Shown here in pieces: positions 15,772 through 63,438 of a DNA stretch of 64,000 nt. Within the stretch, counting starts at the first letter, position 1; each line of letters begins with the position of its first letter. The notes beneath the pieces are model-generated. The model ran no database searches. It was not told the DNA's origin and worked only from the letters and a program-made list of their open reading frames with translations. Origin of the DNA: Candidatus Spongiisociaceae bacterium (GTDB lineage Bacteria; Actinomycetota; Acidimicrobiia; Spongiisociales; Spongiisociaceae); the NCBI GenBank assembly GCA_965243165.1, contig OZ251535.1:1281572-1345571 (forward strand), read 5' to 3'. A program made the translations under genes and the position numbers.

Positions 15772-15800
15772 TTGACTATTGGGGGGGGGGGGGGTAGTAT
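15772..15800 (+). promoter_or_regulatory. Putative promoter of giant gene 2: TTGACT - ATT + 14 G (17 nt spacer) - TAGTAT
   Basis: -35 15772-15777; G14 at 15781-15794; -10 15795-15800. The palindrome CCCGCGCCGGCGCGG lies 30 bp upstream at 15728-15742. Confidence 0.55.
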
Positions 15801-15862
15801 TGTTGTTGTGATCGTTGTCCCCTCGCTCGGTGAGGGGCTGGCTTGATGGAGGAGGTGGCCTG

Positions 15863-18800
15863 ATGATGCGGGGTTGGTCGTTGCTGCGGGGGGGGGGGGG
15901 CCAGGTGTTGAGGCCGCGGCGTTGGTTGGGTTTGGCGTTGGCGGTTGGTTTGGTGTTGGGGGTGTTGCCGGTTGGTCCGCCGGGGGTGGTGGGTCAGTCG
16001 GCGACGATTACGTTGTCGTTCGATGACGGGCAGGGTACGCCGTCGGCGGTGACGGGGGTGGCGGAGGAGGGCGGCGGTCAGTCGGTGCGGGTGGTGGCGA
16101 CGGCTTCGGCGGCGACGTCGGCGGTGGTGGCGGTGAACGTGACGGCGGCGGCGGGCACGGCGACTGCTACTACGGATTATGCGATTTCGGCGGCGTCGTG
16201 GACGGTGACGATCGCGAGCGGGGCTACGGTGGGGCGGTCGGCGGCGTTGACGGTGACTCCGGTCGCCGATGCGTTGGTGGAGGGGGATGAGACGATTGTG
16301 TTTTCGGCGACTACGACCGCGACTGGTTATTCGGCGATTGCTGATGTGAGTTTGAATATCGAGGATGCTGATGTGATTACGTTGTCGTTCGATGACGGGC
16401 AGTCGACGCCGTCGGCGGTGACGGGGGTGTCGGAGGAGGGCGGCGGTCAGTCGGTGCGGGTGGTGGCGACGGCTTCGGCGGCGACGTCGGCGGCGGTGAC
16501 GGTGAATGTGACTGCGGCGGCGGGTACGGCGACTGCTACTACGGATTATGCGATTTCGGCGGCGTCGTGGACGGTGACGATCGCGAGCGGGGCTACGGTG
16601 GGGCGGTCGGCGGCGTTGACGGTGACTCCGGCCTCCGACATGTTGGTGGAGGGGGATGAGACGATTGTGTTTTCGGCGACTACGACGGCGACGGGTTACG
16701 CGGCGATCGGGAGTGTGAATTTGAGTATTGGGGATGATGACAATGTGATTACGTTGTCGTTCGATGACGGGCAGGGTACGCCGTCGGCGTTGACGGGGGT
16801 GCCGGAGGGGGGCGGCGGTCGGTCGGTGCGGGTGGTGGCGACGGCTTCGGCGGCGTCGGGGGTGGAGTTGACGGTGAATGTGTCGGCGGCGGCGGGCACG
16901 GCGGCGGATCCGGAGGATTATGGGATTTCGGCTTCGTCGACGTCGGTGACGATTGCTTCGGGGGATACGGTGGGGTATTCGGAGGTGTTGACGGTGACTC
17001 CGGTGGATGACTTGTCGGTGGAGGGGGATGAGACGATTGTGTTTTCGGGGTCTACGACCGTGCCGGGTCATGCGGCGATTGCTGATGTGAGTTTGAATAT
17101 CGTGGATGATGACAATGTGATTACGTTGTCGTTTGCGGATGCGGCGGGTCAGCCTGTTGATGGGTTGGGGGAGGACGGCGGGCGTCAGTCGGTGCGGTTG
17201 GTTGCTTCGGTTCCGGCGGGGGTGCTGGTGCCGGCGGATGTGGATGTGTCGGTGACGGTGGATGATGCTCCTGAGACGGCGACGCCGGGGGCGGGCGGGG
17301 ATTATACGGCTTCTGGGATTCCTGCTTCGTTGACGGTTTCTATCAGTTCGGGTGGAACGGTGAGCGGGTCGTCGGGCGATTTGGTGTTTACTGCTTTGTC
17401 TGATCGGGTGTTAGAGGATCATGAGATCGTGAGGAGGTTTACGGGTACGGCTTCGGGGTATACGGTCAAGGATGCTGATTTGTTGATTTTGGATGCGGAT
17501 CGTACTATTGTTGTTACTATGGATAATCTGAGACAACCTACGACCCATCATTTTTTTACTCGTGATGACGGTACTTTCGTTTTACGGGAGACTGGTGATC
17601 CTAGGAGCGGGCCGATATTTTGTTCTTGTCATGACGGCCCTCAGCCGTGGTTCACCGGCCGGGTGGATGGGGTTACTTCTTCTACCTACAGTCAGAACCT
17701 GACCATGTATTTCAAGCTTTTCAGCGGGACTGCTGAAGTTGTTAGCGGCGGTGAAATTCCCGGAACTGTGGATATCACTGGTTTAATTTTGGATGATTGG
17801 TTTCGTAGGTCCCGTACACACAACGTCCGGGCGACGTTGAATGCGGGCAACACTTTTTTCAGGTTTAGGCCGGGCGGTTCTCAGGCTGATTTTTTTAGCG
17901 GTTACAATTTTATCGCGGAGCCTGATGAGACTTTCACGATTGGATTTGCTAAAACCTGGAACGGCTTTGAACCGCCGGATGGGTTCGAGATTGTTCCGGT
18001 GCAGGGGGTGGTGATCGATGATGATGTACAGCTTGAGAGGTTTTGGGTGGATGTTACGTCGGTGGCGGAAGGTTCGCCGACGGATGTGAAAATTGGTACG
18101 GGTTTTAATGCTAGTTTGACTGATTATGGCAGTGTCCCGTCTGACCAGAACCGTGAGGGTCGGAACAATGCTCAACGTTCCGAGTTGACGTCTGATACGG
18201 TGGTGTCGTTGTCGGTGGTGGAGGGGCCGGGGTTGCTGAGCGCCGACGAGTATTCTGCCACTTGGACGAGGAGGTCGATAACTATTGCGGCGGGTGCTGC
18301 GGGTGACGGCGGTTGGGAGACAACGTTGACGAATCTGTCGGTTGCGGATGATGGTGTGGTGGAGGGTCTGGAGCGGCTGCGGATCGTGGGTACGGCGGCG
18401 TTGGCGGCGACCAAGTCTGATGGGTCGCCTACTGATCAGGTGGTTACTTTCAAGGACCTGTCAGCGAATATTATTACGGTGACGGATGCCAATGCTGATA
18501 TCACGTTGTCGGTGTCGCCGGGGACGGTGTCGGAGACGGCGGCCGGTCAGCCGGTGACGGTGTCGGCGGAGTTCGCGGGGTCGTCATCGGTTTTGACGTC
18601 TGATACGGATGTGGCGGTGCAGATAGCCGGGGGTACGGCAACGTTGACGTCTGATTTCACTACGGGTCTGGCGAATGATCGGTTGACGGTTACGATCCCG
18701 GCGGGGGAGACGAGGGGGTCGAAGTCGTTTACGTTGACGGCGATCGACGACAGCACACAGGAGCCTAGCGGGGAGACGGTTACGTTCGCGGGGCATGGGA

Positions 18801-21800
18801 CTACGCGGGTGGGCGGGCAGACGGTTACGGTTACGGGCGGTGAGTTGACGATTATGGATCCGGGTTCGGAGGTGGTGTTGTCTTTGACGGACACCGGGGC
18901 TTCTCCGGCGGTGTTGTCGGCGGTGGGGGAGGACGGCGGGGCGGAGATGGTGCGGGTGACGGCTACGGTGGGTACGGCCCCGTCGGGCAGTGATCTGGAT
19001 GTGGCGGTGACGGTGGGCGCGTTGGGGAGCACGGCGGACGCGGGGGATGATTATACGCTTTCTGGGTCTTCGGTTACGGTGACCATCGCGGATGGGGCCA
19101 CATCTGGGTCGGCGGATGTGACGGTTACGCCTGTTCCTGATACGGTTACGGAGGATCATGAGACGATCTGGTTCACGGGGACAGCAACAGGTTATGTGGT
19201 TGCGCCGGTTTCGTTGGAGATCACCGACGCCGACCGGACGGTCACGTTGGAGTTCGCTGTTTCGGGGTCTTATCCGTTGGAGTTTCGGGAGGGGCGTTAT
19301 GGTAATGAGTGGAGGAGTATCACCGCCCATGTGGAGGGTGTGTCTTCTACGTATTCCGGTAGTATCGAGGGGCGGGTCCGGCCAGAGTCGGGTACGGCTG
19401 TGGTGGACGCTACCGGCCAGTCGAGCGGGGATCTCTACAATTGGCTCGAGTCTTCTAACACGGGTGATCACAAGCATGTCAGTATCGGTGCGGGTGCTAC
19501 GTCGTCGGGGCCTGCTTGGTTCAATTCGCGTGTCCGGGCGGATGACGCGGCGGAGCCGGTGGAGGATTTGTTCTATACGTTGTCGGATTTGACTGATGGT
19601 TTCACGGTGGAGCGGGTGAGGGTGACGTTGGTGGATCCGTTGGACACGGCGGTGGTGTTGACGTTGGGGGGTACGGGGGGTACGGTGTCGGAGGGCGGGG
19701 ACCTTTCGGGTCTGTCGGTTACGGCGGGGTTTCCGTCTGGTGTTACGTCGAATGCGTTGGGTTCTGATCTGGTGGTGACGTTGGGCGCTCCGGAGGCGGG
19801 TACGGCGGGGGCGGATGATTTTTCGTGGACGCCGCCCGATCCTGCGGATACGTTGACGATTCCAACGACGGCGACGGTGAGTCCGGACGCGGATGCGGTG
19901 TCGCCTGCGGGGGTGTCGATCACCGATGATTCGGTGGTGGAGAACCCGGAGACGCTGCAGCTGACCGGCAGCTACACGCTGGACGGTGAAACCCGGGAAA
20001 CGTCGGCGGAGTTGACGATCGAGGACGACGACGCGAATGTGGTGTTGTCGGTGTCGCCGGGGACGGTGGCGGAGGGCGACACGGAGGAGGTGCGGGTTAC
20101 GGCCCGGTTTGCGGGGTCGGCTACGGAGTTGACTTCGGATACGACGGTTACGGTTACCATCGCGGCGGGTACGGCGACGTTGACGACTGATTTCACTACG
20201 GACGCGACGGGCAGTCAGGTGTCGGTGGTGATCCCGGCGGGTTCTTTGTCGGGGTCGGCGACGTTCAATTTGACAGCGGAAACAGACAGCACCATGGAGG
20301 GGAACGAGACGGTTGCCTTGTCGGGGGCGGGGACGATCGGGTCGCAGACGTTGATGGTGACGGGCGCTGCGGTGAACATCGTCGATTCGGGGATCACGTT
20401 GGCGGTGGATGCGGATGCGGGTCCGTCGGGTGCGTCGGGTGTTCAGTCGTCGGTGGGTGAGGAGGGGGGCACCAAGATGGTGGAGGTTACGGTTACGTTG
20501 CCGACGGCGCCTTCGGGGAGCGCCGAGGTGGTGGGGTTGAATGTGGTGGGCGGCACGGCGGTGTTGGACGACGATTCGGAGTTCGGGGTGGGGGAGGACT
20601 TCCGGGTGACGTATCCGTCGCCGCAGTCGCCGGCGCCGCCGGCGGGTCATAGTTTGGCGGTTGAGGTTGCTGATGGTGCTACGACGGGGTCGGCGACGTT
20701 TACGGTGGTGTTGGACGACGACGATGTTGCGGAGGGTTCTGCGGCGGAGACGGTGGTGATCGAAGGCGCCGCTGTCACCTACGGCGGTGGTACGTATGAG
20801 GTGGTGTCGACCAGTTTTGGGATCACCGACGACGACGCGTCGCCCACCACTATTGGTTTGTCCTTGCTGGACAGCGAAGGGGAGGACTTGACAGAGGTCC
20901 GGGAGGACGGCGGCACGGTGCGGGTGAGGGTGAAGGCCGCCCTGGCGGGGGAAAAGGTGCTGCCCCGGTCGGTGACGGTTCCGCTCACGGTGGGCATGTC
21001 GGGCGGCGCCTTAGCGGTGCATGATTTCAAGCGGGTTTCGTCGCTGGCGGTGACGATTCCGCCTTATGAGGATGAAGGCACCGTTGAGTTCGATCTGGAA
21101 CTGATCGACGATACGAGGCCGGAGGGCGCCGAGGAGCTGACGGTCCACGCCGGCACTCTGGGGGCCGGCTTGACCGGTTTGGGGTTCACCGCGGTGGAGT
21201 CCGATTCGTTGACCATCGTGGACAACGACATGATCCTGGGGTTGTTGGACGCCGAGGGAGAGCCGCTGACCAGGGTTCTGGAAGGGGCCAGCCCCCAGGT
21301 GCAGGTGCAGCTGTCATATCCAGGAATACACTGGAGCAGCCCCCGGTTCGTGCGGGTAACCGTCGAGGCCGGAACCGCCGCCGGCAGCGACTACCGCATC
21401 CCGGTTGCCCCCGGCGACGTGTTCTTCCCGCCCGGTCAGAACAGCGCAACCAAGACGATCGGGTTGAACACGGTCAACGACCGCTCGGTCGAGGGCGACG
21501 AAACGTTGCGGGTGTCCGCCGCGGCGGAGGGGTTCGACATCGCTCCGGTGGAGCTCATCATTCAGGACAACGAGATCCGGTTGTCGTTGAACCAGGCGTC
21601 GGTGCGGGAAGACGCAGGCCGGATCACCCGGACGGTTACCGCCGCAGCGAGTTCCGCACCCCCCGAGGATCTGGTGGTGAATGTTAGGGTCGCGGGGAGC
21701 GGTTACACCAGCCTGAGTCCGAGGTCGTTCTCGATCACTATTCCCGCCGGGGAGACGTCGGGGTCCAGATCGTTCTCCATGACCGTGACCGACGACTCCA

Positions 21801-22684
21801 CCCCGGGCAATTCCAAGTCGGTGTCGGTTACGGGTTCCGCGTCTGGGTTCGACGTTTCGTCGGCTCGTTTGACCATCACCGACGACGGCGACACCGCCCC
21901 GCCGCCTCCCCCGCCCCCGGCCGGAGGCGGCGGCGGAGGGGGAGGCGGCGGAGGCGCTCCGCCCCCATCAGGCGGCGGCGGAGGGGGAGGTGGTGCTCCG
22001 CCCCCAGCAGGAGGAGGGGGAGGCGGGGGCGGCGGTGCTCCGCCTCCGGCCGGTGGAGGCGCGCAGCCCCCGGCTCAGCCGCCCGCTCCGGCGTGCGTGG
22101 GCCGGTTCTGCGACGACGACGGCAACGTCCACCAGGACAACATCGAACGGATCGCGGTGTGGCGGATCACTCTCGGCTGTGACGCCCAGGACGCCACCAA
22201 GTACTGCCCCGACGCGGAGATCACCCGCCGGCAGATGTCCGCCTTCTTGCATCGGGCCGTTTCGCAGCGGTGGACCATCGAAGCCCCCGAAGGGATCGAG
22301 CTGTCCGACGTCGGCGCGGATGAGTGGTTCCGCCCCTTCGCGGAGTGGGTCGTCTCCGTGGGAGCGTTCAGCGCCCCCGGAGGGGTGTTCGACCCGGGCG
22401 GGGTGGTTACCCGGGCGGATATGGCGATCATGATGATCGGCGCCTTCCCCCACCTCGACGCCGTCCCGACCGAAGCGAGCCGGTTCGGCGACGTAGAGGG
22501 CCTCTCCCCCGAAGTGTTGGCCGCCCTCGAGGGCATGTATCAGACGGGCGTAACCCGTGGATGCTCCGCCGAGCCGCTGAATTACTGCCCTGCCCAGCCG
22601 GTTACCCGGGCGCAGATGGCTTCGTTCTTCGTCCGGGCCGTCAACCTCGCCCCCGCCGACACCCAACCCGCCGCCGGCACCTGA
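15863..22684 (+). CDS. Giant Calx-beta-repeat/SLH surface protein, paralog 2 (the only copy in frame with its ATG start)
   Basis: RBS GGAGGAGGTGG then ATGATG at 15863. The 12-G tract 15889-15900 encodes RGGGGQ in frame. Three N-terminal Calx-beta units, alternative middle module (TMDNLRQPTTHHFFTRDDGTFVLRETGDP…), Gly/Pro linker, three SLH motifs. Confidence 0.85.
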   Translation: MMRGWSLLRGGGGQVLRPRRWLGLALAVGLVLGVLPVGPPGVVGQSATITLSFDDGQGTPSAVTGVAEEGGGQSVRVVATASAATSAVVAVNVTAAAGTATATTDYAISAASWTVTIASGATVGRSAALTVTPVADALVEGDETIVFSATTTATGYSAIADVSLNIEDADVITLSFDDGQSTPSAVTGVSEEGGGQSVRVVATASAATSAAVTVNVTAAAGTATATTDYAISAASWTVTIASGATVGRSAALTVTPASDMLVEGDETIVFSATTTATGYAAIGSVNLSIGDDDNVITLSFDDGQGTPSALTGVPEGGGGRSVRVVATASAASGVELTVNVSAAAGTAADPEDYGISASSTSVTIASGDTVGYSEVLTVTPVDDLSVEGDETIVFSGSTTVPGHAAIADVSLNIVDDDNVITLSFADAAGQPVDGLGEDGGRQSVRLVASVPAGVLVPADVDVSVTVDDAPETATPGAGGDYTASGIPASLTVSISSGGTVSGSSGDLVFTALSDRVLEDHEIVRRFTGTASGYTVKDADLLILDADRTIVVTMDNLRQPTTHHFFTRDDGTFVLRETGDPRSGPIFCSCHDGPQPWFTGRVDGVTSSTYSQNLTMYFKLFSGTAEVVSGGEIPGTVDITGLILDDWFRRSRTHNVRATLNAGNTFFRFRPGGSQADFFSGYNFIAEPDETFTIGFAKTWNGFEPPDGFEIVPVQGVVIDDDVQLERFWVDVTSVAEGSPTDVKIGTGFNASLTDYGSVPSDQNREGRNNAQRSELTSDTVVSLSVVEGPGLLSADEYSATWTRRSITIAAGAAGDGGWETTLTNLSVADDGVVEGLERLRIVGTAALAATKSDGSPTDQVVTFKDLSANIITVTDANADITLSVSPGTVSETAAGQPVTVSAEFAGSSSVLTSDTDVAVQIAGGTATLTSDFTTGLANDRLTVTIPAGETRGSKSFTLTAIDDSTQEPSGETVTFAGHGTTRVGGQTVTVTGGELTIMDPGSEVVLSLTDTGASPAVLSAVGEDGGAEMVRVTATVGTAPSGSDLDVAVTVGALGSTADAGDDYTLSGSSVTVTIADGATSGSADVTVTPVPDTVTEDHETIWFTGTATGYVVAPVSLEITDADRTVTLEFAVSGSYPLEFREGRYGNEWRSITAHVEGVSSTYSGSIEGRVRPESGTAVVDATGQSSGDLYNWLESSNTGDHKHVSIGAGATSSGPAWFNSRVRADDAAEPVEDLFYTLSDLTDGFTVERVRVTLVDPLDTAVVLTLGGTGGTVSEGGDLSGLSVTAGFPSGVTSNALGSDLVVTLGAPEAGTAGADDFSWTPPDPADTLTIPTTATVSPDADAVSPAGVSITDDSVVENPETLQLTGSYTLDGETRETSAELTIEDDDANVVLSVSPGTVAEGDTEEVRVTARFAGSATELTSDTTVTVTIAAGTATLTTDFTTDATGSQVSVVIPAGSLSGSATFNLTAETDSTMEGNETVALSGAGTIGSQTLMVTGAAVNIVDSGITLAVDADAGPSGASGVQSSVGEEGGTKMVEVTVTLPTAPSGSAEVVGLNVVGGTAVLDDDSEFGVGEDFRVTYPSPQSPAPPAGHSLAVEVADGATTGSATFTVVLDDDDVAEGSAAETVVIEGAAVTYGGGTYEVVSTSFGITDDDASPTTIGLSLLDSEGEDLTEVREDGGTVRVRVKAALAGEKVLPRSVTVPLTVGMSGGALAVHDFKRVSSLAVTIPPYEDEGTVEFDLELIDDTRPEGAEELTVHAGTLGAGLTGLGFTAVESDSLTIVDNDMILGLLDAEGEPLTRVLEGASPQVQVQLSYPGIHWSSPRFVRVTVEAGTAAGSDYRIPVAPGDVFFPPGQNSATKTIGLNTVNDRSVEGDETLRVSAAAEGFDIAPVELIIQDNEIRLSLNQASVREDAGRITRTVTAAASSAPPEDLVVNVRVAGSGYTSLSPRSFSITIPAGETSGSRSFSMTVTDDSTPGNSKSVSVTGSASGFDVSSARLTITDDGDTAPPPPPPPAGGGGGGGGGGGAPPPSGGGGGGGGAPPPAGGGGGGGGGAPPPAGGGAQPPAQPPAPACVGRFCDDDGNVHQDNIERIAVWRITLGCDAQDATKYCPDAEITRRQMSAFLHRAVSQRWTIEAPEGIELSDVGADEWFRPFAEWVVSVGAFSAPGGVFDPGGVVTRADMAIMMIGAFPHLDAVPTEASRFGDVEGLSPEVLAALEGMYQTGVTRGCSAEPLNYCPAQPVTRAQMASFFVRAVNLAPADTQPAAGT

Positions 22685-22742: not shown

Positions 22743-22811
22743 AACCGCCCCTGGAGTCTGTGTAGCCCTGCCTGGCGGCTTCTTCGGTGTGCTTGACTAT
22801 TCGGGGGGGGG

Positions 22812-22842
22812 GGGGGTAGTATGTTGTTGTGATCGTTGTCCC
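22812..22842 (+). promoter_or_regulatory. Putative promoter of giant gene 3: TTGACT - ATTC + 15 G (19 nt spacer) - TAGTAT
   Basis: -35 22812-22817; G15 at 22822-22836; -10 22837-22842. The spacer is 2 nt longer than in the other three copies, and the upstream CCCGCGCCGGCGCGG palindrome is missing in this copy. Confidence 0.5.
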
Positions 22843-22883: not shown

Positions 22884-25800
22884 ATGATGCGGGGTCGGTC
22901 GTTGCTGCGGGGGGGGGGGGGGGCTGGTGTTGAGTCGGCGGCGTTGGTTGGGTTTGGGGTTGGCGGTTGGTTTGGTGTTGGGGGTGTTGCCGGTTGGTCC
23001 GCCGGGGGTGGTGGGTCAGTCGGCGACGATTACGTTGTCGTTCGATGACGGGGCGGGTACGCCGTCGGCGGTGACGGGGGTGTCGGAGGGGGGCGGCGCG
23101 CAGTCGGTGCGGGTGGTGGCGACGGCTTCGGCGGCGACGTCGGCGAATGTGGATGTGACGGTGTCGATCGCGGCTGGTACGGCGACTGCTACTACGGATT
23201 ATGGGATTTCGGCGACGTCGGCGACGGTGCAGATCGCCAGCGGGCAGACGGTGGGGCGGGCGGCGGCGGCGTTGACGGTGACGCCGGTGGATGATTCGTC
23301 GGTGGAGGGGGATGAGACGATTGTGTTTTCTGCTACTACGACCGCGACTGGTTACGCGGCGATTTCTGATGTGAGTTTGAATATCGTGGATGATGATTTT
23401 TATTCGATTACGTTGTCGTTCGATGACGGGGAGAGCACGCCGTCGGCGTTGACGGGGGTGGCGGAGGGGGGCGGTGGTCAGTCGGTGCGGGTGGTGGCGA
23501 CGGCTTCGGCGGCGACGTCGGCGGCGGTGACGGTGAATGTGACGGCGGCGGCGGGCACCGCGACCGCGGCGACGGATTATGCGATTTCGGCGACATCGGA
23601 GTCGGTGACGATTGCGAGCGGGGAGACGGTGGGGCGGGCGGCGGCGGCGTTGACGGTGACGCCGGTGGATGATTCGTCGGTGGAGGGGGATGAGACGATT
23701 GTGTTTTCGGCGACTACGACGGCGACTGGTTACGCGGCGATTGCTGATGTGAGTTTGAATATCGTGGATGATGACAATGTGATTACGTTGTCGTTTGTGG
23801 ATGCGGCGGGTCAGCCTGTTGGGGGGTTGGGGGAGGACGACGGGGTTCAGAGGGTGCGGTTGGTTGCTTCGGTTCCGGCGGGGGTGCAGGTGCCTGCGGA
23901 TGTGGATGTGTCGGTGACGGTGGATGATGCTCTTGAGACGGCGACGCCGGGGGCGGGCGGGGATTATACGGCTTCTGGGATTCCTTCTTCGTTGACGGTT
24001 TCTATCGCTTCGGGTGGAACGAGCGGGTCTTCGGGTGATATGGTGTTTACTGCTTTGTCTGATCGGGTGTTCGAGGATCATGAGATCGTGAGGAGGTTTA
24101 CGGGTACGGCTTCGGGGTATACGGTCGAGGGCGCTGATTTGTTGATTTTGGATGCGGATCGTACGATTGTTGTTAGGATGGATAATCTGAGAAGGCCTAC
24201 GACCCATATTTGGTTTACTCGTGATGACGGTACTTTCGTTTTACGGGAAACTGGTGATCCTACAGGTCCTTGGAACGGTCCGCAATTTTGTTCTTGTCAT
24301 GACGGCCCTATCCCGTGGTTTACTTTCACGGTGGATGGGGTTACTTCTTCGACCTACAGTGAGAACCTGACCTTGGTCTTCAATGCTTTCGACGGGACTG
24401 CCAAAATTAATAATCTCCCTTCAAACCTCCCTGGACAGCCCGATGTAACAAGTTTGGGTATCAGAGAAAATAACCGTGACAGCCAGAATCATAGGGCGAC
24501 GTTGAATGCGGGCAGCTTATTTGTCCGGCTTCGTCCGAGCGGTGCTCAGAATGAAATCGACAGCTACTACGATTATGTCGCGGAGCCTGATGAGACTTTC
24601 ACGATTGGGGTTGAGCCGATAGATGGTTTTGAGATTGTCAATGTTGATGGTGTGGTAATCGATGATGATGTACAGGTCCATATGGCTGTTCAAGGTACTC
24701 CGACGGTGGCGGAGGGTTCGTCGAGGGATTTGGTTATTGGTGCAGGTATGAACGCTAACCATACTGATCTTGAAAATATCCTGTCATACTGGAACCCTGA
24801 GCGTCGGAAGAATAATCAACGTTCCGATATAACGTCTGATACGGTGGTGTCGTTGTCGGTGGCGGAGGGGCCGGGGTTGTTGAGCGCCGACGATTTTTCT
24901 TCTTTCGATTGGAAGAGGAGGTCGATTACTATTCCGGCGGGTGCTGCGAATGATGGCGGTTGGGAGACAACGTTGGAGAATCTGTCGGTTGCGGATAATA
25001 CGGTGGTGGAGGGCCCAAAGAAGCTGCGGATCGTGGGTGCGCCGGCGTTGGCGGCTGCCAAGCCGGATGGGTCGCCTACTGATCAGGTGGTTACTTTCAA
25101 CAACGTGCAGTTGGATGTTTTGACTGTGACGGATGATGATGCTGATATCACGTTGTCGGTGTCGCCGGGGGTAGTGTTGGAGAAGGCGGGCGGTCAGACG
25201 GTGACGGTGGTGGCGGAGTTCGCGGGGTCGTCGTCGGAATTGACTTCGCATACGGATGTGGAGGTGCAGATAGCCGGGGGTACGGCAACGTTGACGACTG
25301 ATTTCACTACGGATGTCACGAATGACCGGTTGACGGTTCGGATTCCGGCGGGTCTGACGAGCTGGTCGAAGTCGTTCACGTTGACGGCGTCTGACGACGG
25401 TGTGACGGAGGCCGGCGGGGAGACGGTTACGTTCGCGGGGCATGGGACCACGCGGGTGGGCGGGCAGACGGTTACGGTTACCCCCGGTGAGTTGACGATT
25501 ATGGATCCGGGTTCGGAGGTGGTGTTGTCTTTGACGGACACGCAGGCTACGCCGGAGGCGTTGTCGGCGGTGGGCGAGGACGGCGGGGCGGAGACGGTGC
25601 GGATAACGGCTGCGGTGGGTACGGCCCCGGCGAGCGATCTGGATGTGGCGGTGACGGTGGGCGCGTTGGGGAGCACGGCGGACGCGGGGGTTGATTACAC
25701 GGTTGATGAGTCTTCGGTTACGGTGACCATCCAGGGTGGGCAAACGACTGGGTCGGCGGATGTGACGGTTACGCCTGTTCCGGATGCGGTTACGGAGGAT

Positions 25801-29527: not shown

Positions 29528-29556
29528 TTGACTATTCGGGGGGGGGGGGGTAGTAT
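29528..29556 (+). promoter_or_regulatory. Putative promoter of giant gene 4: TTGACT - ATTC + 13 G (17 nt spacer) - TAGTAT
   Basis: -35 29528-29533; G13 at 29538-29550; -10 29551-29556. Upstream palindrome CCCGCGCCGGCGCGG at 29483-29497. Confidence 0.55.
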
Positions 29557-29616: not shown

Positions 29617-32600
29617 ATGCTGGGTTGGTCGTTGCTGCGGGGGGGGGGGGCAGGTGTTGAGTCGGCGGCGTTGGTTGGGTTTGGGGTTGGCGGTTGGTTT
29701 GGTGTTGGGGGTGCTGCCGGTTGGTCCGCCGGGGGTGGTGGGTCAGTCGGCGACGATTACGTTGTCGTTCGACGACGGGGAGAGTACGCCGTCGGCGTTG
29801 ACGGGGGTGGCGGAGGAGGGCGGCGGTCAGTCGGTGCGGGTGGTGGCGACGGCTTCGGCGGCTACGTCGGCGGCGGTTACGGTGAATGTGTCGATCGCGG
29901 CGGGTACGGCGACCGCGGCGACGGATTATGCGGTTTCGGCGGCGTCGGCGACGGTGACGATCGCCAACGGGGATACGGTGGGGTATTCGGCGGCGTTGAC
30001 GGTGACGCCGGTGGATGATGCGTTGGTGGAGGGGGATGAGACGATTGTGTTTTCGGCGACTACGTCGGCGACGGGTTATTCGGCGATTGCTGATGTGAGT
30101 TTGAACATCGAGGATGCTGATGTGATTACGTTGTCGTTCGATGACGGGGCGGGCACGCCGTCGGCGGTGACGGGGGTGTCGGAGGAGGGCGGCGGTCAGT
30201 CGGTGCGGGTGGTGGCGACGGCTTCGGCGGCGACGTCGGCGGCGGTTACGGTGTCGGTGTCGATCGCGGCGGGTACGGCGACTGCGACGACGGATTATGC
30301 GGTTTCGGCTTCGTCGACGACGGTGACGATCGCCAACGGGGATACGGTGGGGCAGTCGTCGGCGTTGACGGTGACTCCGGCCTCCGACGCGTTGGTGGAG
30401 GGGGATGAGACGATTGTGTTTTCGGGGTCTACGACGGCGACGGGTTATGCGGCGATTGCTGATGTGAGTTTGATTATTGGGGATGATGACAATGTGATTA
30501 CGTTGTCGTTCGATGACGGGGAGAGTACGCCGTCGGCTGTGACGGGGGTGTCGGAGGGGGGCGGCGGTCGGTCGGTGCGGGTGGTGGCGACGGCTTCGGC
30601 GGCGTCGTCGGCGGCGGTGACGGTGGATGTGTCGGCGGCGGCGGGTACGGCGACTGCGGCGACGGATTATGCGGTTTCGGCTTCGTCGGCGTCGGTGACG
30701 ATCGCGGCGGGGGATACGGTGGGTTATTCGGAGGTGTTGATGGTGACGCCGGTGGATGACTTGTTGGTGGAGGGGGATGAGACGATTGTGTTTTCGGGGT
30801 CTACGACCGTGCCGGGTCATGCGGCGATTGCTGATGTGAGTTTGGTTATTGGGGATGATGACAATGTGATTACGTTGTCGTTTGTGGATGAGGCGGGTGA
30901 GCCTGTTGGGGGGTTGGGGGAGGACGACGGGGCGCAGGCGGTGCGGTTGGTTGCTTCGGTTCCGGCGGGGGTGCAGGTGCCGGCGGATGTGGATGTGTCG
31001 GTGACGGTGGATGATGCTCCTGAGACGGCGACGCCGGGGGCGGGCGGGGATTATACGGCTTCTGGGATTCCTGCTTCGCTGACGCTTTCTATCGCTTCGG
31101 GTGGGACAGTGAGCGGGTCTTCGGGTGATTTGGTGTTTACTGCTTTGTCGGATCGGGTGTTCGAGGATCACGAGATCGTGAGGAGGTTTACGGGTACGGC
31201 TTCGGGGTATACGGTCGAGGACGCTGATTTGCTGATCATGGACGCCGATCGTACGATTGTTTTTCATGTAGATGATGATCGTGGTAATATTATTAGGAGC
31301 GGGTCGTTGTACATGCGTGAGCGGGGCGATCCGGTTGGCACTAATGAATGTGACTGCAATCGGGTGGGCCCGAGGCCTGGGTTCACTGTCCGGATAGACG
31401 GGGTTACGTCTTCTACTTACAGTCAGAACTTGAGGATGCGTTTTGGCGGTATCAGCGGGACGGCGAAATACCCGTTCTATAATCCAGAGGGTCTGGGTGG
31501 ATTTAATGATTTTTATTCCCTAGCAGACGAAAGCGGGAGGAGCAGGTGGTTGGAGTTGCCTGCGGGAAGTATTTACGCAATTAGCTGGTTCAATTCGGGC
31601 GAGAACTTTGATTCATGGAAGGATCATGTAGCGGAGCCGGATGAGATTGGTTACCTTGGGGCTCGTCCGTCGGGTGTTCATACTTTGGAGGGGTTTACGT
31701 TGGTCAATATTCCTTTGGTGATCATCGATGATGATGTTCAGTTCAATCCTTTGGGGAGGAGTGTTACGTCGGTGACGGAGGGTTCAACGACGGCGGCTGT
31801 CAATATCAGTGCGCGTATGCATGCTAATTCTTCTCAATTGACGTCTGATACGGAGCTGTCGCTGTCGGTGTTGAGGGAAGATGATCCTGAGGTAGGGGTA
31901 GCGGGTGTTGATGATTTCTCTTACTCGGGTTTGACTGACGGGACTGTGGCGGCGGGGCAGATACACACTGGATCTTCTCCGGGGGTGTTGTCTGGACTGG
32001 CGGTTGTGGATGATACGGTGGTGGAGGGCCCGGAGCAGGTGAAGATCATGAGCTCCCCGGCTTTGGCGGCGGCGAAGCCGAATGGGGATGAAACTGATCA
32101 GGAGGTTACCTTCGACAGGCTGGAGACGCACGTAACGATTGAGGATGATGATGCTGATATCAGTTTGTTGGTGTCGCCGGGGTCGGTGGTGGAGAAGGCA
32201 GGCGGTCAGACGGTGACGGTGGTGGCGGAGTTCGCGGGGTCGTCGTCGGTTTTGACGTCTGATACGGATGTGGAGGTGCAGATAGCCGGGGGTACGGCAA
32301 CGTTGACGACTGATTTCACGGTTTCGGGTTTGGATGCCAACGATCGGTTGACGGTTACGATCCCGGCGGGCCGGACGTCGGGGTCGAAGACGTTTACGCT
32401 GACGGCGCTCGTCGACAGCGTGACGGAGTCCAGCGGGGAGACGGTTACGTTCGAGGGGCATGGAACCACGCGGGTGCGCGGGGCAGCCGTGACGGTTACG
32501 GGCGCCTCGCTGACGATCATGGATCCGGGTATGGAGGTGGTGTTGTCTTTGACGGACACGGGGATTTCTCCGGAGGCGTTGTCGGCGGTGGATGAGGACG

Positions 32601-36699: not shown

Positions 36700-37650
36700 T
36701 CGGGCTAGAGACCCCTAAAAATCCGATGCCCCCTCAAGAGGGACGAGCAGACAGAGCCGACCAGGTGATTTGGATGCGTTGGCCTCACGGCGAAACCCCC
36801 GGCAGAAAACCCGCTGACCAGCAACGACCTCTATCCCCCTCTGCCATCAGCTCGTCTTCTCGAACTGAACCAATCCGAGCAGCAAACTGAACCCAACCCG
36901 AGCAGCACCCCGATTTTCGCGTTCTCCGCCCCCCGCCCCGGCTTCGCCGGGTCTCCCGCCCCCGCCGCCGCCGATCCATTGTTTTCGGGCGCTGGGGGCG
37001 TGTTGGGGCCCTCTGCGCTCGATCCGCCTCGGCACAGCCAGGTTGGCCGCCTTGCCCTTGGAGTTTTGGCTCTGGGCGGAGCGGCCTCTGTATGACCGCA
37101 GCATCCGGATCGGCTGCGGTTTCTGTACCGCCCCAAGGTATCAGGGGGCTGTGACAACTTTCGGCAGCCGGATGGAAGATGATGAAATGAACGGAACCGG
37201 GCCTGAGCACACACACACTGTTTTTCGCGTTCTCTGCCCCCCGGCCCCGGCTTCGCCGGGTCTCCCGCCCCCGCCGCCTCCGATCCATTGTTTTCGGGCG
37301 CTGGGGGCGTGTTGGGGCCCTCTGCGCTCGATTCGCCTCGGCACAGCCAGGTTGGCCGCCTTGCCCTTGGAGTTTTGGCTCTGGGCGGGGCGGCCTCTGT
37401 ATGACCGCAGCATCCGGATCGGCTGCGGTTTGTGTCCGCCTCAAGGTATCAGGGGGGTGTGACAACTTTCGGCAGCCGGATGGAAGGCGGGCTCCGCCGG
37501 CCCTGGTTGGAGGACGAGCGGATATGGGCTGACCAGGTTGTTCGGGTGCGTTGGCCCGGCGGCGAAATTCCTGGCAGGCAACCCCGCCGTCTGCCGGCAA
37601 ACTTCTATCCTTCTCTGCCTATCCGCTCATCTTCTAAGCCTGATGGCCGA
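36700..37650. repeat. MITE-like repeat cluster: S unit (reverse), two tandem L units (reverse, ~36880-37160 and ~37165-37470), S unit (reverse)
   Basis: Shares landmark sequences with the other copies (TTTTCGCGTTCTCCGCCCCCC…, …CCCCAAGGTATCAGGGGG(C/G)TGTGACA). S-unit terminal inverted repeats GGAGGACGAGCGGATATGGG … GCCTATCCGCTCATCTTC. Confidence 0.75.
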
Positions 37651-37652
37651 CA

Positions 37653-39647
37653 TCACGCCGCTAAGGACAGCAAAAGGGCTCGCGAGAGCAAGGCTGCCAT
37701 CTGCCCTCTGGTGATGGGTTGGTCGGGGCAATAGCGGAGCGGGGCGGTTGCACACCCGTCACCGATACCCGCCGCTTTCAGGGCTTCTGCGGCTCGGACA
37801 ACTCGGTCGGGTTGATCCGACATGTCGGCGAACAACCCTTGCACCCTTACGGAAGGAGTGATGAGGTCGAAGATGGAGGCGATCATTTCGGCTATTTCTG
37901 CTCTGGTTACTATCCCGTCCGGATTGAACTCACCGCCCGGCGGCCGCATTACTTCCCTCATTATTTGCTGCTCAACCGCCCACTCCATATAATGTTGGTA
38001 ATTTTCTTCGTAGTCTACGCCTTCTATCTCGTTGGGCATTATCCAGCTTACTTCCCGCGGAAATGACTCCAAAATTGCCGCCGCCCTATACAGGAAGGCC
38101 GCCATCTGCTTTCGGGTGATAGTATCATCCGGGCAGAATCTGCCGCCGCCGCATTCTTGGGCTATCCTGTCGGAAACTATATGTTCTATATATGGTTCGT
38201 GTTCATGGCAGTCGTCATCCGAGAACTGTCCGGCAGGTTTCAAGCGGCCTTCGGAGTCCAAAAGCAGGTCGTGGAGCTCTACTGGGATGGCGCTGCTCAA
38301 CTGATTGGGATGCAGATTCAGGAATATCAGGCCTGGGATTTGGCTGAGTTCGCGGGGGACAGCGCCGGTCAGCTGATTGCAGCCCAGATGCAACCAACCC
38401 AGATTGGTTAGTTTCGATAATTCTGGTGGTATACTGCCTGTCAACTCATTGTGGTACAGATTGAGGGTTCGTAGATTGGTCAGTTGTGAGAGTTGGGTCG
38501 GTATAGGTCCGGTCAATCTATTTCTATCCAGCCCCAGATCTTCAAGGTTGGTTAGTCGGGCGAGCTCGGCTGGTATGGGTCCGGTTAGCCGGTTGTCTCC
38601 CAGCCATAGAGCACTGAGGTTCGTAAGCTGAGAGAGTTGTTTGGGCAGCGGTCCGGTCAAATTGTTTCCCCCCAGTGCGATTGCTGATAGGTCGGTCATT
38701 CGGCCAAGTTGAGGTGGTATGGAGCCGGTCAGGTTGTTGTTGTACAGATAGAGAATACCCAGGTTGGTGAGTTGTGAGAGCTCTGGCGGTATAGAACCGA
38801 CTAATTGATTGTCGCCTAGATCGAGGATTGACAGATTGGCGAGCTGGGACAGTTCTTTGGGTATAGGCCCGGTCAATCGGTTGCCTTGCAATATCAGCAT
38901 TACTAAGTTGGTCATTTGAGATAGCTCGACGGGTATAGGTCCGCTCAGACGGTTGCCGGACATGTTAGAGGCTGTCAGCTTGGTTAGTTGGCCCAATTGG
39001 GCTGGGACAGGCCCCGATAGTTTGTTTGCGAACAGATGCATGGCGGTCAGATTGGTCAGGTTTCCGAACTCACTGGGGATAGGACCGGTCAGCTCATTCA
39101 GGCCTAGATTCATCGTATGCAGTTTGGTGAGGTTTCCGAGCTGAGGCGGGATGGGGCCGGTCAGGTCGTTCTTGCGAAGGTAAAGCAATTCCAGGTTGGT
39201 GAGCCGTCCGAGTTCGGCTGGGATAGCGCCCGAGTGGTTTCCGCGCAGGTGCAGCACTTCGAGGTGGGTCAGGTCTCCGATTTGGGGCGGGATGGGGCCG
39301 GCAACGTCGCTCACTCTGAGTTCGGAGACCCGTTGGTTCTTCATCTCAACGCCGATCCACGAGGTGATCGGTGCGTTGTCGCCTCTGCCCCATTGCCGCA
39401 GGTAATGGTCGGCCTCAAGGCCGGCGTTGTCAGGGTGGCGGGTCCAGACATTGCGGACGGCGACCAATGCCCGGCAGTCATCGACCAGCCCCTGAGGGGA
39501 GGGGTCGTCGACGAAGGTCCCGTCGTAGCAACCGAGAGCGCTGAGGTCGGGGATGGGGTTGCTCTGCGCACCGGCGGACAGCACCAAGGCGGCGGTCAGT
39601 CCGGCGGCGCCCAGGATCGGGGCAGCGGGACAGCGGATTTTCTTCAT
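37653..39647 (-). CDS. Secreted leucine-rich-repeat protein (plant-type LxxLxxLxLxxNxLTGPIPxxLGxLTN repeats) with C-terminal SLH domains
   Basis: 664 aa with signal peptide (MKKIRCPAAPILGAAGLTAALVLSAGA), about 14 consecutive 24-aa LRRs, and C-terminal SLH-like motifs (FCPDDTITRKQMAAFLYRAA; RYCPDQPITRGQMAALLSRAL). Confidence 0.85.
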   Translation of the reverse strand: MKKIRCPAAPILGAAGLTAALVLSAGAQSNPIPDLSALGCYDGTFVDDPSPQGLVDDCRALVAVRNVWTRHPDNAGLEADHYLRQWGRGDNAPITSWIGVEMKNQRVSELRVSDVAGPIPPQIGDLTHLEVLHLRGNHSGAIPAELGRLTNLELLYLRKNDLTGPIPPQLGNLTKLHTMNLGLNELTGPIPSEFGNLTNLTAMHLFANKLSGPVPAQLGQLTKLTASNMSGNRLSGPIPVELSQMTNLVMLILQGNRLTGPIPKELSQLANLSILDLGDNQLVGSIPPELSQLTNLGILYLYNNNLTGSIPPQLGRMTDLSAIALGGNNLTGPLPKQLSQLTNLSALWLGDNRLTGPIPAELARLTNLEDLGLDRNRLTGPIPTQLSQLTNLRTLNLYHNELTGSIPPELSKLTNLGWLHLGCNQLTGAVPRELSQIPGLIFLNLHPNQLSSAIPVELHDLLLDSEGRLKPAGQFSDDDCHEHEPYIEHIVSDRIAQECGGGRFCPDDTITRKQMAAFLYRAAAILESFPREVSWIMPNEIEGVDYEENYQHYMEWAVEQQIMREVMRPPGGEFNPDGIVTRAEIAEMIASIFDLITPSVRVQGLFADMSDQPDRVVRAAEALKAAGIGDGCATAPLRYCPDQPITRGQMAALLSRALLLSLAA

Positions 39648-39689: not shown

Positions 39690-40285
39690 ACCCTAACCCG
39701 ATAAGAGGACGAGCGGACAGGGCTGACCAGGTTGTTGGATGCGTCGGCCTCACGGTGAAACCCCGGCAGACAACCCGCCGGCCCGGCAACGACATCTATC
39801 CCCCTCTGCCTGTCAGCTCGTCTTCTCGACTCAAACCGAAACCAAGCCGGGGGGGGGGGGAGCGCATTCGTTTTTCGCGTTCTCCGCCCCCCGCCCCGGC
39901 TTCGCCGGGTTTCCCGCCGCCGCCGCCGAACCACCGTCTTCGGACACCGAGGACGCGTTGCCGCCCCCTGCGCCCGATCCGCCTCGGCACAGCCAGGTCG
40001 GCCGCCCCGCCCTTGGAGCCTCGGCTCTGGGTAGAACGGCCTCTGTATGACCGCAGCATCCGGATCGGCTGCGGTTTCTGTACCGTCCCAAGGTACCAGG
40101 GGGGTGTGACAGATTTCGGCAGCCGGCTGGAAGGCGGCGCCGCCGGCCCTGGTCAGAGGACGAGCGGCAGGAACCGACCAGGTTGTTCGGGTGCGTTGCC
40201 CGGCGGCGAAACCCCCGGCGGGCAACCCGCCGTCTGCCGACAACTTCTATCCCTCTGCCTGTCTGCTCGTCTTCTGATCCTGATC
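39690..40285. repeat. MITE-like repeat cluster: S (reverse), L (reverse, with an 11-G homopolymer at 39851-39861), S (reverse)
   Basis: Same repeat families as 3931-4505; S-unit terminal inverted repeats present. Confidence 0.75.
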
Positions 40286-40340
40286 GTTCACGAGAGGGGG
40301 GGGGGGCGGGCAGATGAAGTGAATTATCGGGGTTGAAGAA

Positions 40341-40808
40341 TTGAGCGGCAACACTCGGCTATCATTACCGGCTGTGATTGCCTTGCCCTCCCCCGACTGG
40401 ACATACCAGCCTCGTTCCGCCTGTGACCTTCCCGACGTGATGGAAGCGCCGGACAGGCGGGGGCCGTTCGTGGTGCCCATCTCACAGTTCGTTGTGGACT
40501 GGAACTGGTGTGACCGCCCTGCCCGCCTTATTCACGATCCGCCTGTGTACGAAGGCAGCGACCCTCTGCTGCTGCCTTCGATCGCGGCTGTCGTGCATGC
40601 TCTGGCTGACCGTGACAGCATCCGTCTGCCCGACTGGGTTCTCGAATATCGGGCTCCTGAAGATGTGATTCTGTTCGGCGGTCATCTGGACACCCCTCTG
40701 GGCGGCTGGGTCAGACAACATGCGCCGTCAGCTTGCGCCTACCATCGGGTATGGTTCGATGCTTCTCTACTGGACAAAGGAACCGACCGGCAATGGCGCG
40801 GGCGCTGA
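40341..40808 (+). CDS. Hypothetical protein (155 aa) in a lower-GC patch; possibly a truncated AbiEi-like antitoxin (speculative)
   Basis: ORF only; lower GC than surroundings; positioned directly upstream of an AbiEii-like N-terminal fragment. Confidence 0.3.
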   Translation: MSGNTRLSLPAVIALPSPDWTYQPRSACDLPDVMEAPDRRGPFVVPISQFVVDWNWCDRPARLIHDPPVYEGSDPLLLPSIAAVVHALADRDSIRLPDWVLEYRAPEDVILFGGHLDTPLGGWVRQHAPSACAYHRVWFDASLLDKGTDRQWRGR

Positions 40809-40975
40809 ACAATATCGAGTTACGCGATCTACTCGCTGAAGTGGATCAAGAACTTGCAGGCTGCGCTGATTCTATATCTATAGTCGCGGCCGGCGGGGCA
40901 GCTATAGCACTTCAATGGCGGCAACGTTCAACTTACGATGTTGATATAGTTGAGATGAATGCGATGTTGATATAG
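40793..40975 (+). pseudogene. N-terminal fragment (~60 aa) of an AbiEii/AbiGii-family nucleotidyltransferase toxin, truncated
   Basis: MARALNNIELRDLLAEVDQELAGCADSISIVAAGGAAIALQWRQRSTYDVDIV fits the minimal nucleotidyltransferase motif (hGG.A..L…R.S.DhDh) at the N-terminus of AbiEii-family proteins. The frame ends within a 25-bp tandem duplication, and the rest of the expected ~250-aa protein is absent. Confidence 0.4.
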
Positions 40976-40985
40976 TTGAGATGAA
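40936..40985. repeat. Perfect 25-bp tandem duplication (CGATGTTGATATAGTTGAGATGAATG x2)
   Basis: Seen directly in the sequence; overlaps the end of the AbiEii-like fragment. Confidence 0.9.
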
Positions 40986-41000
40986 TGAAATGAAGGCGCG

Positions 41001-46079: not shown

Positions 46080-46615
46080 CTGTGCGCAGGTACCGTCTGG
46101 GCTTCGACCAGGCCAACACACCCAAAAACAACCTGACCAGCCTTACCGCCCGCCCTCTCGAACCCAAACCAAACCGAAAACCCAAGCCCGAAGCCAGCAC
46201 ACCGTTTTTCGCGTTCTCCGACCCCCGCCCCGGCTTCGCCGGGCCCCGCCCCCGCCGCCGCCAAACCATCGTTTTCGGACGCCGGGGGCGCGTTGCGGCC
46301 CCCTGCGCCCGATCCGCCTCGGCACAGCCAGGTCGGCCGCCTCTCCCTTGGAGCCTCGGCCCTGGGCGGAGCGGCCTCTGTATGACCGCAGCATCCGGAT
46401 CGGCCGCGGTTTCTGTACCGAAACAAGGTATCAGGGGGGTATGACACAAATCGGCAACCGGACGGAAGGCGGGCTCCGCCGGCCCCGGTTATCCATCTCA
46501 GAGACGCGCGGATGAGCGTCGACCAGGGTGTTCAGGTCCGCCGGGCGGCCAAAGAACCCCTGGCAGGCACCCCGCCGGCCGCCGGCGGCTTCTACCCTCC
46601 GCCCGCCTGTCCGCG
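46080..46615. repeat. L unit (reverse) followed by a degenerate S unit
   Basis: Landmarks TTTTCGCGTTCTCCGACCCCC… and …AACAAGGTATCAGGGGGGTATGACA. Confidence 0.7.
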
Positions 46616-53027: not shown

Positions 53028-53149
53028 GCCGGGCGGCTCCAAGGGCTGCCCCGGCAAGAACCTCGTGTAAGAAAAAGCGCGGACAGGCGGGCGGAGGGCA
53101 GAAGCCGCCGGCGGCCGGCGGGTTGCCTGCCGGGGGTTCTCCGGCCGCC

Positions 53150-53665
53150 CGGCAGACCTGAACACCCCGGTCGACGCTCATCCGCGCGTCTCTGAGATGA
53201 ACAACCGGGGGGTCGGCGGAGCTTCGGCTTCCGTCCGGCTGCTGATTTGTGTCACACCCCCCTGATACCTTGGAGCGGTACATAAACCGCAGCCGATCCG
53301 GATGCTGCGGTCATACAGAGGCCGCTCCGCCCAGAGCCGAGGTTCCAAGGGCGGGGCGGTCGACCTGGCTGTGCCGAGGCAGATCGGGCGCAGAGGGAGG
53401 CAACGCGCCCTCGGCGCCCGAAGACGGTGGTTCGGAGGCGGCGGGGGAGGGGGCCCGGCGAAGCCGGGGCGGGGGGCGGAGAACGCGAAAAACAGTATGT
53501 TGCTTCGGGCTTGGGTTTGCGGTTTGGTTTGGGTTCGAGAGGGCGGGCGGTAGGGGCTGACCAGGTTGTTTTGGGTGCGTTGGCCTGGTGCGAAACCCGG
53601 GCGGCGCCCGCTGACCCGCTGTAACTTCATTCCTTCTGCCTATCCGCTCGTCTTGATCACGGCTG
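53150..53665. repeat. MITE-like repeat cluster: degenerate S, L (forward, ~53230-53520), S (reverse)
   Basis: CACACCCCCCTGATACCTTGGAGCGGTACATAAACCGCAGCC…GGAGAACGCGAAAAAC; the S unit ends with GCCTATCCGCTCGTCTTG. Confidence 0.75.
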
Positions 53666-62299: not shown

Positions 62300-62394
62300 T
62301 CAATGCCGGTTTGATATCGTTGCCCGATACGCCAGTATCCGCACCCCCCCGATCCCGTTGATCCATCCCCCAATGACCGAAGCAGGAGTAGACG

Positions 62395-62889: not shown

Positions 62890-62945
62890 TCGCTCAAGGA
62901 CCATGCACTGTGATATTCGGGGAGGTTGTCCCTCTAGCTAACTAA

Positions 62946-63371: not shown

Positions 63372-63438
63372 AAATCTTTGTCTATGTGGCCAGACTGTGC
63401 CTGTAGTATCAAGGGCCTGTATTTCAATTCCTACAAAG

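Follow-up and report, generated by a model that had tools for sequence, protein, structure and literature searches.

A plant-receptor-like leucine-rich repeat protein with a predicted cell-wall anchor in a Candidatus Spongiisociaceae bacterium

We analyzed a 64,000-nucleotide stretch (the window) of a Candidatus Spongiisociaceae genome, class Acidimicrobiia (GenBank assembly GCA_965243165.1, contig OZ251535.1, positions 1,281,572 to 1,345,571), and in it one complete gene (37653-39647 of the window, reverse strand, from the list of open reading frames, ORFs) that encodes leucine-rich repeats (LRRs) followed by an S-layer homology (SLH) domain; we refer to it as the LRR-SLH gene. We read its product as a wall-anchored protein for ligand binding and host interaction, which would be exported by the Sec pathway, be held by its SLH domain, and bind through its LRRs a partner that is most probably sponge-derived; we put the probability of this reading at about 0.6. 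The product has a clear domain architecture, a predicted fold like that of plant receptors, and an SLH domain homologous to known ones; the gene evolves under purifying selection, and the family recurs in the clade.

Domain architecture and repeat class

The sequence-only reading of this stretch had proposed a signal peptide, then an LRR block, then SLH motifs, and this layout is borne out by the sequence, by Pfam, and by an AlphaFold2 (AF2) model. The gene comprises 664 codons and a stop codon (37653-37655), and a database protein encoded on a 3.19-Mb NCBI/ENA contig (P0138) is identical to its product. The N-terminus, MKKIRCPAAPILGAAGLTAALVLSAGA before QS, shows the n-, h-, and AxA-like regions expected of a Sec signal peptide (residues 1-28; 39564-39647), read directly as MKKIR, a hydrophobic core, and SAGA; the pattern is kept in all 22 aligned members of the LRR-SLH family. 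Residues 1-28, the sole long N-terminal stretch of low confidence in the AF2 model (predicted local distance difference test score, pLDDT, <50), probably constitute a Sec-type signal peptide. The N-terminal cap that follows (residues 29-106; 39330-39563) was delimited from the family alignment and the AF2 model, where it is helical with a pLDDT of 82-96; its columns C40, D57, and C58 are invariant in the 22-sequence alignment. The cap includes an LRRNT_2-like segment (W-x-GV...RV-x-L), and PDB alignments with ERL1 and HAESA begin inside it, at residue 83; the Pfam LRRNT_2 model has no match in the protein at E<=0.1, and C40/C58 is a Cys pair different from that of plant LRRNT_2.

Fifteen LRRs come next (residues 107-463; 38259-39329), as judged from their register, Pfam, and the AF2 model: a unit of 22 residues (107-128), one of 23 residues (129-151), and 13 uninterrupted units of 24 residues (152-463), with the consensus LxxLxLxxNxLTGPIPxELxxLTN and a 72-nt period in the DNA. 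About 14 uninterrupted 24-residue repeats had been counted earlier; the length and the lack of interruption hold (13 units are exact), and the count becomes 15 repeats. The search with profile hidden Markov models that had been suggested as a check gave LRR_1 (E=6e-33), LRR_8 (E=1e-27), and LRR_4 (3e-24) in the LRR block (6e-33 to 3e-23 when LRR_14 is included), values well past chance, and SLH at 35.9 bits (cut-off 20.8 bits) in the C-terminal domain. This triple, cell-wall-binding type of SLH domain (residues 475-664; 37656-38225; assigned from Pfam SLH and PDB profile matches) is separated from the LRRs by a flexible linker of 11 residues (464-474; 38226-38258), with a pLDDT below 50 over residues 465-479 and a length that varies in the family.

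The SLH anchor is genuine, as had been proposed. Its three motifs carry TRKQ, TRAE, and TRGQ, one Thr-Arg motif per unit, and R512, R582, and R647 are invariant in the 22 aligned family sequences, as are two Cys pairs, C499/C505 and C632/C640. When the C-terminal domain of the family is used as a profile, it matches the SLH domain of Bacillus anthracis Sap (6bt4, E=9e-18; 3pyw), and its positions 13-184 align with residues 10-170 of SbsB (4aq1), covering all three motifs. The protein runs from the LRR block through the linker into SLH with no kinase match in Pfam and no transmembrane helix, and a NEAT or other cofactor-binding module has no Pfam match in it.

The repeats had been described as those of plant extracellular receptors, and our results agree. 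The plant-specific (PS) LRR class has the consensus LxxLxLxxNxL(t/s)GxIPxxLGxLxx (PMC2946307), and the window consensus fits this class of the Kajava/Matsushima classification; set against the class length of 23-25 residues, 13 units have 24 residues, one has 23, and one has 22. In the AF2 model (mean pLDDT 81, >90 for 347 residues; predicted template modeling score, pTM, 0.69) strand, strand, and a 5-residue helix alternate in every repeat, giving a regular strand/3-10 solenoid that is confident over residues ~30-450; this fits the PS class, in which a short 3-10/helical turn following a beta-turn makes up the convex side. The 39 best matches of a PDB sequence search are all plant LRR receptor ectodomains, including GSO1 (2.5e-144), MIK2, FLS2, RGFR1, PEPR1, ERL1, HSL1, BRI1, TDR, and PSKR1, and the first non-plant/bacterial LRRs rank after them. 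Similarly, the top 50 Foldseek matches of the AF2 model are all ectodomains of plant LRR receptor kinases (LRR-RKs).

Conservation and proposed role

Intact orthologues were found at 93% identity (L001/L002, the sister strain) and 79% identity (L004). The ratio of nonsynonymous to synonymous substitution rates (dN/dS) is 0.26 overall against the 93% orthologue (0.23 in the LRR block, 0.16 in SLH, 0.63 in the cap) and 0.31 against the 79% orthologue. Orthologues that are intact and dN/dS values of 0.23-0.31 indicate that function has been maintained. dN is about five-fold lower in three of the four housekeeping neighbors compared; in the fourth, a deaminase gene, it is similar to that of the LRR-SLH gene. 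By these comparisons the gene is functional and under purifying selection, evolving faster than most of its neighbors and with no gene-wide positive selection. Diversifying selection on the concave face of the LRRs, which we also considered, was not seen in dN/dS or in the position counts given below.

LRR proteins and other eukaryote-like proteins (ELPs) are the main genomic candidates for symbiont recognition in sponges. This gene and its family join the LRRs to a wall anchor in Acidimicrobiia of the sponge type, which is predicted to place them on the symbiont surface. We propose that Sec would export the protein to the outside of the Gram-positive-type cell, where the triple SLH domain would bind the secondary cell-wall polymer non-covalently; this binding is putatively to a pyruvylated polymer and dependent on CsaB. 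The short flexible linker would project the 15-repeat solenoid, and the concave face of the solenoid could bind a specific, conserved partner. Most likely, the partner would be a protein or peptide of the sponge host or its extracellular matrix, and the binding might serve recognition, attachment, or avoidance of phagocytosis.

We favor a sponge-derived class of partner because of the lineage and the published enrichment of ELPs. The family Spongiisociaceae, validated under the SeqCode, is described as "from sponges" (PMC11384910), and LRR and Calx-beta domains, two classes that are adjacent in the window, are significantly enriched in sponge-symbiotic as compared with free-living Acidimicrobiia (PMC11706023). 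LRR ELPs were defined in that work by a match to PF00560, PF12799, or PF13855 at E<1e-5 (PMC11706023); the LRR-SLH protein matches all of these models (6e-33, 3e-24, and 1e-27, respectively). Since the organism is most likely sponge-associated, the protein would be one of the LRR ELPs that such symbionts carry in excess.

A more specific proposal, which we hold only tentatively and think rather unlikely, is that across the LRR-SLH family of sponge Acidimicrobiia the concave face, conserved under purifying selection, binds a specific host peptide or protein and acts as a "self/symbiont" tag that spares the bacteria from phagocytosis by the sponge. If so, the SLH tether would make a eukaryote-like protein act at the symbiont surface and not as an injected effector, and the protein could be expressed as a concrete bait with which to look for the host receptor. 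This matters for the question of how sponges distinguish resident symbionts from food bacteria, and the family offers a defined ectodomain of ~360 residues for binding assays.

Several points weigh against our main reading. No pyruvyl-transferase (csaB) or wall-polymer genes are among the scanned ORFs of the 64-kb window. The sponge habitat of this particular genome would follow from its relatives only, and, since LRR domains bind very diverse ligands, a host protein is no more than the likeliest kind of ligand. Also, amino-acid differences from the orthologues are not concentrated on the concave face (of the 59 differences from P0002, 20 are at the five variable positions of the concave face and 17 at four other variable positions), so there is no signature of host-driven diversification.

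The main rival is wall-anchored nutrient capture, in which the LRRs would bind proteins or peptides of the mesohyl or seawater and pass them to uptake systems, as in IlsA of Bacillus cereus, a surface scavenger with the same order of LRR and then SLH (PMC2777315). The upstream neighbor of the LRR-SLH gene encodes an oligopeptide-type ATP-binding cassette (ABC) ATPase (ABC_tran and oligo_HPY), with synteny kept in L001/L002, and among the plant ectodomains that are the closest structural relatives many are peptide-hormone receptors solved with peptide ligands; both fit this rival. However, the ABC gene is 1.35 kb away from the LRR-SLH gene, with repeats and a strain-specific insertion in between, so that co-transcription of the two is unlikely; the adjacent transporter gene is for the ATPase subunit only, the 79% orthologue is in another gene context, and the cofactor-binding module of IlsA, NEAT, has no counterpart here. 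We consider nutrient capture possible but not likely, and retain the wall-anchored host-interaction protein as our reading.

The giant SLH genes and the flanking repeats

As had been noted and as the ORF positions bear out, the LRR-SLH gene is convergent to an array of giant genes, of which there are four in tandem (2110-2289 residues each); the last of them faces the LRR-SLH gene. Giants 1 and 4 (the two scanned) contain Calx-beta and SLH domains, and a C-terminal SLH domain is common to all four; their 3' SLH-coding DNA and several Spongiisociaceae loci share 72-78% identity. Apart from these, the window has ordinary genes for transport and metabolism. The array had also been called phase-variable, and its poly-G tracts are laid out for phase variation. 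In the promoter of each of the four genes, a run of 12-14 Gs (9123-9134, 15781-15794, 22803-22816, and 29538-29550) makes up most of the 17-18-nt spacer of TTGA(C/T)T...TAGTAT, and a second run of 12-15 Gs (9230-9242, 15888-15900, 22909-22923, and 29639-29650) directly follows the Shine-Dalgarno sequence and start codon, GGAGGAGGTG-ATG. Counted from that ATG, the signal peptide is in frame in gene 2 (15815-22684) alone and out of frame in genes 1, 3, and 4. The giants thus carry what looks, convincingly, like a textbook design for slipped-strand phase variation, with one of the four copies predicted to be ON.

It had been suggested that this proximity makes a coherent surface-interaction locus. 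The contig of the sister strain (L001) stops 5 nt past the position of the giant-gene stop, which makes the adjacency probable in this 93%-identical strain as well. Against this, the 79% orthologue (L004) has entirely different neighbors and no adjacent giant, and LRR-SLH genes in other genomes are hundreds of kb away from the other SLH genes retrieved. Since the adjacency is seen in the closest strain only, the suggestion comes out weak, and the locus is at best a species-level arrangement.

We think it still less probable than nutrient capture, and on the whole unlikely, that the LRR-SLH gene and the four giant Calx-beta/SLH genes work as a single surface-coat module under common regulation and phase variation. 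They lie directly side by side (probably also in the sister strain) and have the type of anchor in common, and G12-15 tracts are present in the promoter spacer and the 5' coding region of the giants; however, the two sides converge, 1.3 kb of repeats separates them, and the LRR-SLH coding sequence has no homopolymer of 8 or more. On the plus strand, G12 (39849-39860) and G11 (40296-40306) are C-runs on the strand of the LRR-SLH gene, preceding its start by 202 and 649 nt, but no promoter-spacer (-35/-10) context was recognized around them, and L001 and L002 have non-homopolymeric sequence in place of both. The distance between LRR-SLH genes and other retrieved SLH genes elsewhere is a further point against such a module.

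The LRR-SLH gene is bordered by a dispersed mosaic repeat. The downstream flank (36731-37644, plus strand), between the LRR-SLH stop and the end of giant gene 4, has the arrangement X-Y-Y-X, and the upstream flank (39697-40284, plus strand), which takes up most of the 5' intergenic region and contains the C12 run at 39849-39860, has X-Y-X. Module X is an imperfect palindrome of ~130 nt with an 18-bp terminal inverted repeat, and module Y (~285 nt) has a CCCGGC-TTCG-GCCGGG hairpin. Together with intergenic copies at 3931-4501 (minus strand), 46196-46614 (plus strand), and 53068-53659 (mixed orientation), there are five copies in the 64 kb; L001 has copies at 9368-9950 and 12010-13042, and the flanking arrangement is the same in L001-L003. 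Profiles of X and Y (nhmmer) found no copies in the 80 Acidimicrobiia loci kept from our locus scan (see below) or around the L004 orthologue, and an exact-pattern scan found none in JGI metagenomes.

A structured RNA gene in the flanking repeats was considered and rejected: there is no convincing covariation, and X forms a rod whichever strand is folded. The RNAalifold consensus was weak and nearly devoid of covariation; the 18-bp terminal stem of module X is paired at 83.5%, as compared with at most 48% when partners are slid, and its covariation is not above that of shuffles. Rfam (gathering thresholds for the whole window, E-value mode for the left flank) returned only a sub-threshold gabT match, and no tRNAs were found. 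We regard the repeat as a putative lineage-specific palindromic element, similar to miniature inverted-repeat transposable elements or repetitive extragenic palindromic sequences (MITE/REP-like). Since it also borders housekeeping genes, it is no evidence that the LRR-SLH gene is mobile cargo.

A segment of ~700 bp (40280-40985) is absent in the sister strain (L001/L002). One of its ORFs (155 aa) has no counterpart in Pfam; another, short one resembles, below threshold, the N-terminus of a DUF6036 nucleotidyltransferase (E=0.002). The segment closes with a perfect tandem duplication of 26 nt (40936-40987) and has the look of a decayed insertion of the toxin-antitoxin type.

Bacterial affinity of the repeats and comparison with known systems

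The LRR type of the window had been thought uncommon in bacteria, which our searches contradict. A large-database search, in which only 8000 candidates were scored, gave at least 7954 matches at E<=0.001. We classified the best 120 by listed names and Pfam matches: 21 are full-length LRR-SLH proteins, 58 are other non-plant proteins outside this family, 38 are plant receptor kinases, and 3 are unnamed kinase-bearing metagenome proteins, which were set aside; SLH is present in 34 of the 120. The non-plant matches join LRRs to Big_2, fn3, type IX secretion system (T9SS) sorting domains, peptidase S8, or SLH. For eight of the 58 we inspected the full sequence (one of them is an annotated Chloroflexota protein), and they have the repeat NQLTGxIPxELGxLTNL as in the window, related N-caps, and other modules of bacterial type. 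In the LRR block, bacterial matches share 46-53% identity with the window protein, and plant matches 35-45%.

We also compared position-specific repeat profiles built from 1045 bacterial and 776 plant units, with the window protein and all members of the LRR-SLH family left out. The repeat units of the window score +4.7 nats per unit towards the bacterial profile; training-set scores are 0.05 to 9.4 nats per unit for bacterial proteins and -9.5 to -4.4 for plant proteins. The units thus score as the bacterial variant, and the LRR-SLH protein is therefore a member of a bacterial radiation of PS-like LRRs and not a recent import from plants. That the PS class is common in uncultured bacteria corrects the usual assumption, and a PS repeat alone is so no evidence of plant-to-bacterium transfer.

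Codon composition had been put forward as a further check. GC content at third codon positions (GC3) is 0.65 for the whole gene (LRR block 0.61, SLH 0.62, signal peptide and cap 0.83), which is atypical next to 0.83-0.95 for most other genes of the window. However, family members elsewhere are alike: GC3 is 0.62-0.76, as compared with 0.85-0.96 in their neighbors, for L004, L005, L006, and one of the two L010 genes (window, 37653-39647; L004, 9968-11983; L005, 2890-4875; L006, 2974-6757; L010, 1336-3561), and the low value persists between orthologues at a dS of ~0.4. Low GC3 is common to the family in several genomes and so is a long-standing family trait, which rules it out as proof of recent transfer into this genome; repeated exchange among symbionts and weak codon selection are possibilities for its cause. 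Another compositionally atypical segment of the window is at 60179-64000 (GC 43-58%), with a gene for a 706-aa NMT1/THI5-like protein that has a GC3 of 0.58.

The SLH domain of the LRR-SLH protein shares 42-45% identity with that of LRR-SLH proteins in other genomes and ~35% with those of the four adjacent giants. The fusion is therefore old and was not locally assembled, and on the same identities we reject the idea that its SLH domain came from the giants by a local swap. The idea that a plant or algal receptor ectodomain arrived recently by horizontal transfer and was fused here to an SLH anchor from the neighboring giants could draw on the plant LRR-RKs among the best solved-structure matches, the low GC3, and the dispersed repeat on both flanks, but it is very improbable and largely refuted by the nearer bacterial relatives and bacterial-variant repeat units, by the SLH identities, by the low GC3 of family members in four other loci (L004, L005, L006, and L010), by the lack of a kinase, a transmembrane helix, or a Pfam LRRNT_2 match, and by flanking repeats that also border housekeeping genes elsewhere in the window.

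We found at least 21 further protein clusters with the full architecture (signal peptide, Cys cap, PS-type LRRs, three SLH motifs, and the Cys pairs), sharing 40-93% identity with the window protein across the whole alignment; none of them bears a name from any source. In a locus scan with one genome per species, using the SLH motif [VI][TN]RxQ[MT]AAFL, 514 stretches were confirmed and 80 were kept, nearly all from Acidimicrobiia; LRRs adjoin SLH in 10 of the 80. These LRR-SLH loci come from three Ca. Spongiisociaceae genomes, one Acidimicrobiales metagenome-assembled genome (MAG) with three separate loci, and a few other MAGs, and two of them (L006 and L010) have tandem LRR-SLH pairs. One relative (P0053; 924 aa, on a 3.16-Mb contig) has the same cap and LRRs and, between the LRRs and the three SLH motifs, an insert of ~400 residues with a HELGH zinc-metalloprotease-like motif, which suggests that the family may also tether enzymes.

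Among known systems, the ectodomains of plant LRR-RKs and receptor-like proteins (ERL1, MIK2, FLS2, RGFR1, and GSO1) are alike in the 24-residue PS repeat, LTGxIP, and the LRRNT_2-like cap segment (sequence E-values of 1e-144 to 1e-100; Foldseek E ~1e-31, with template modeling scores of at most 0.67 on the target). Unlike them, the LRR-SLH protein has an SLH anchor in place of a transmembrane helix and kinase, lacks the C-terminal Cys cap and the island domain, and has the bacterial variant of the repeat-unit profile. Closer are the PS-like LRR proteins of uncultured bacteria (e.g., MCY3959986.1 of a Chloroflexota), which have the same repeat consensus and type of N-cap (…NPGLVADC…W.GV…RV..L.L) in addition to the 46-53% LRR identity, and differ in their passenger or anchor modules (Big_2, fn3, T9SS-sorting, or peptidase domains).

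The internalins of Listeria combine LRRs of 22 residues with an Ig-like inter-repeat region and are anchored by LPXTG or GW. With these and with XopAC, XopAE, and XopL of Xanthomonas the LRR-SLH protein has a generic LRR homology in common; it differs from the internalins in its 24-residue repeats and SLH anchor, with no Ig-like inter-repeat domain, LPXTG, or GW module detected, and from the Xop effectors in a predicted Sec signal peptide rather than type III secretion. We rejected an LRR of the internalin or type-III-effector kind, since the NCBIfam models for InlA, XopAC, XopAE, and XopL all score far below their cut-offs (e.g., InlA 67 against 1600 and XopAC 103 against 450); InlJ and InlK score ~12 bits. 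The alternative raised alongside the sequence-only reading, a common internalin-type repeat with close homologues throughout the clade, is therefore half right: the repeat is not of that type, while full-architecture homologues are found repeatedly across the clade.

The window protein resembles the LRR ELPs of sponge symbionts in its Pfam matches, in its position beside Calx-beta proteins (the other enriched class), and in a lineage related to the sponge-derived Spongiisociaceae; the SLH wall tether, the Cys-containing N-cap, and the PS-type repeat are details that the window protein adds. SLH or S-layer anchoring has 0 occurrences in the study that reported their enrichment (PMC11706023), and no paper came up in a full-text search for S-layer homology and leucine-rich repeats jointly with symbionts and sponges.

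A precedent in layout is IlsA of B. cereus, with a signal peptide, NEAT, LRRs, and three SLH motifs, which is surface-localized, binds host proteins, and scavenges haem and ferritin iron; BslL of B. anthracis likewise has LRRs and then three SLH motifs (PMC2777315). Both have a signal peptide, an LRR block, and three C-terminal SLH motifs in common with the window protein; the host phylum differs, and the window SLH variant has, in addition, conserved Cys pairs. The repeat of IlsA is internalin-like and shorter. Unlike IlsA, the window protein has no NEAT and reaches 73.7 bits with NCBIfam NF033190 (cut-off 1275), and it is therefore no member of that family; only the order of LRR and then SLH is common to the two. 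Taken together, known modules are combined here in a straightforward way, into an architecture that has no name, and the lineage was already known to be rich in such modules; the LRR-SLH gene is real and fairly ordinary for its lineage.

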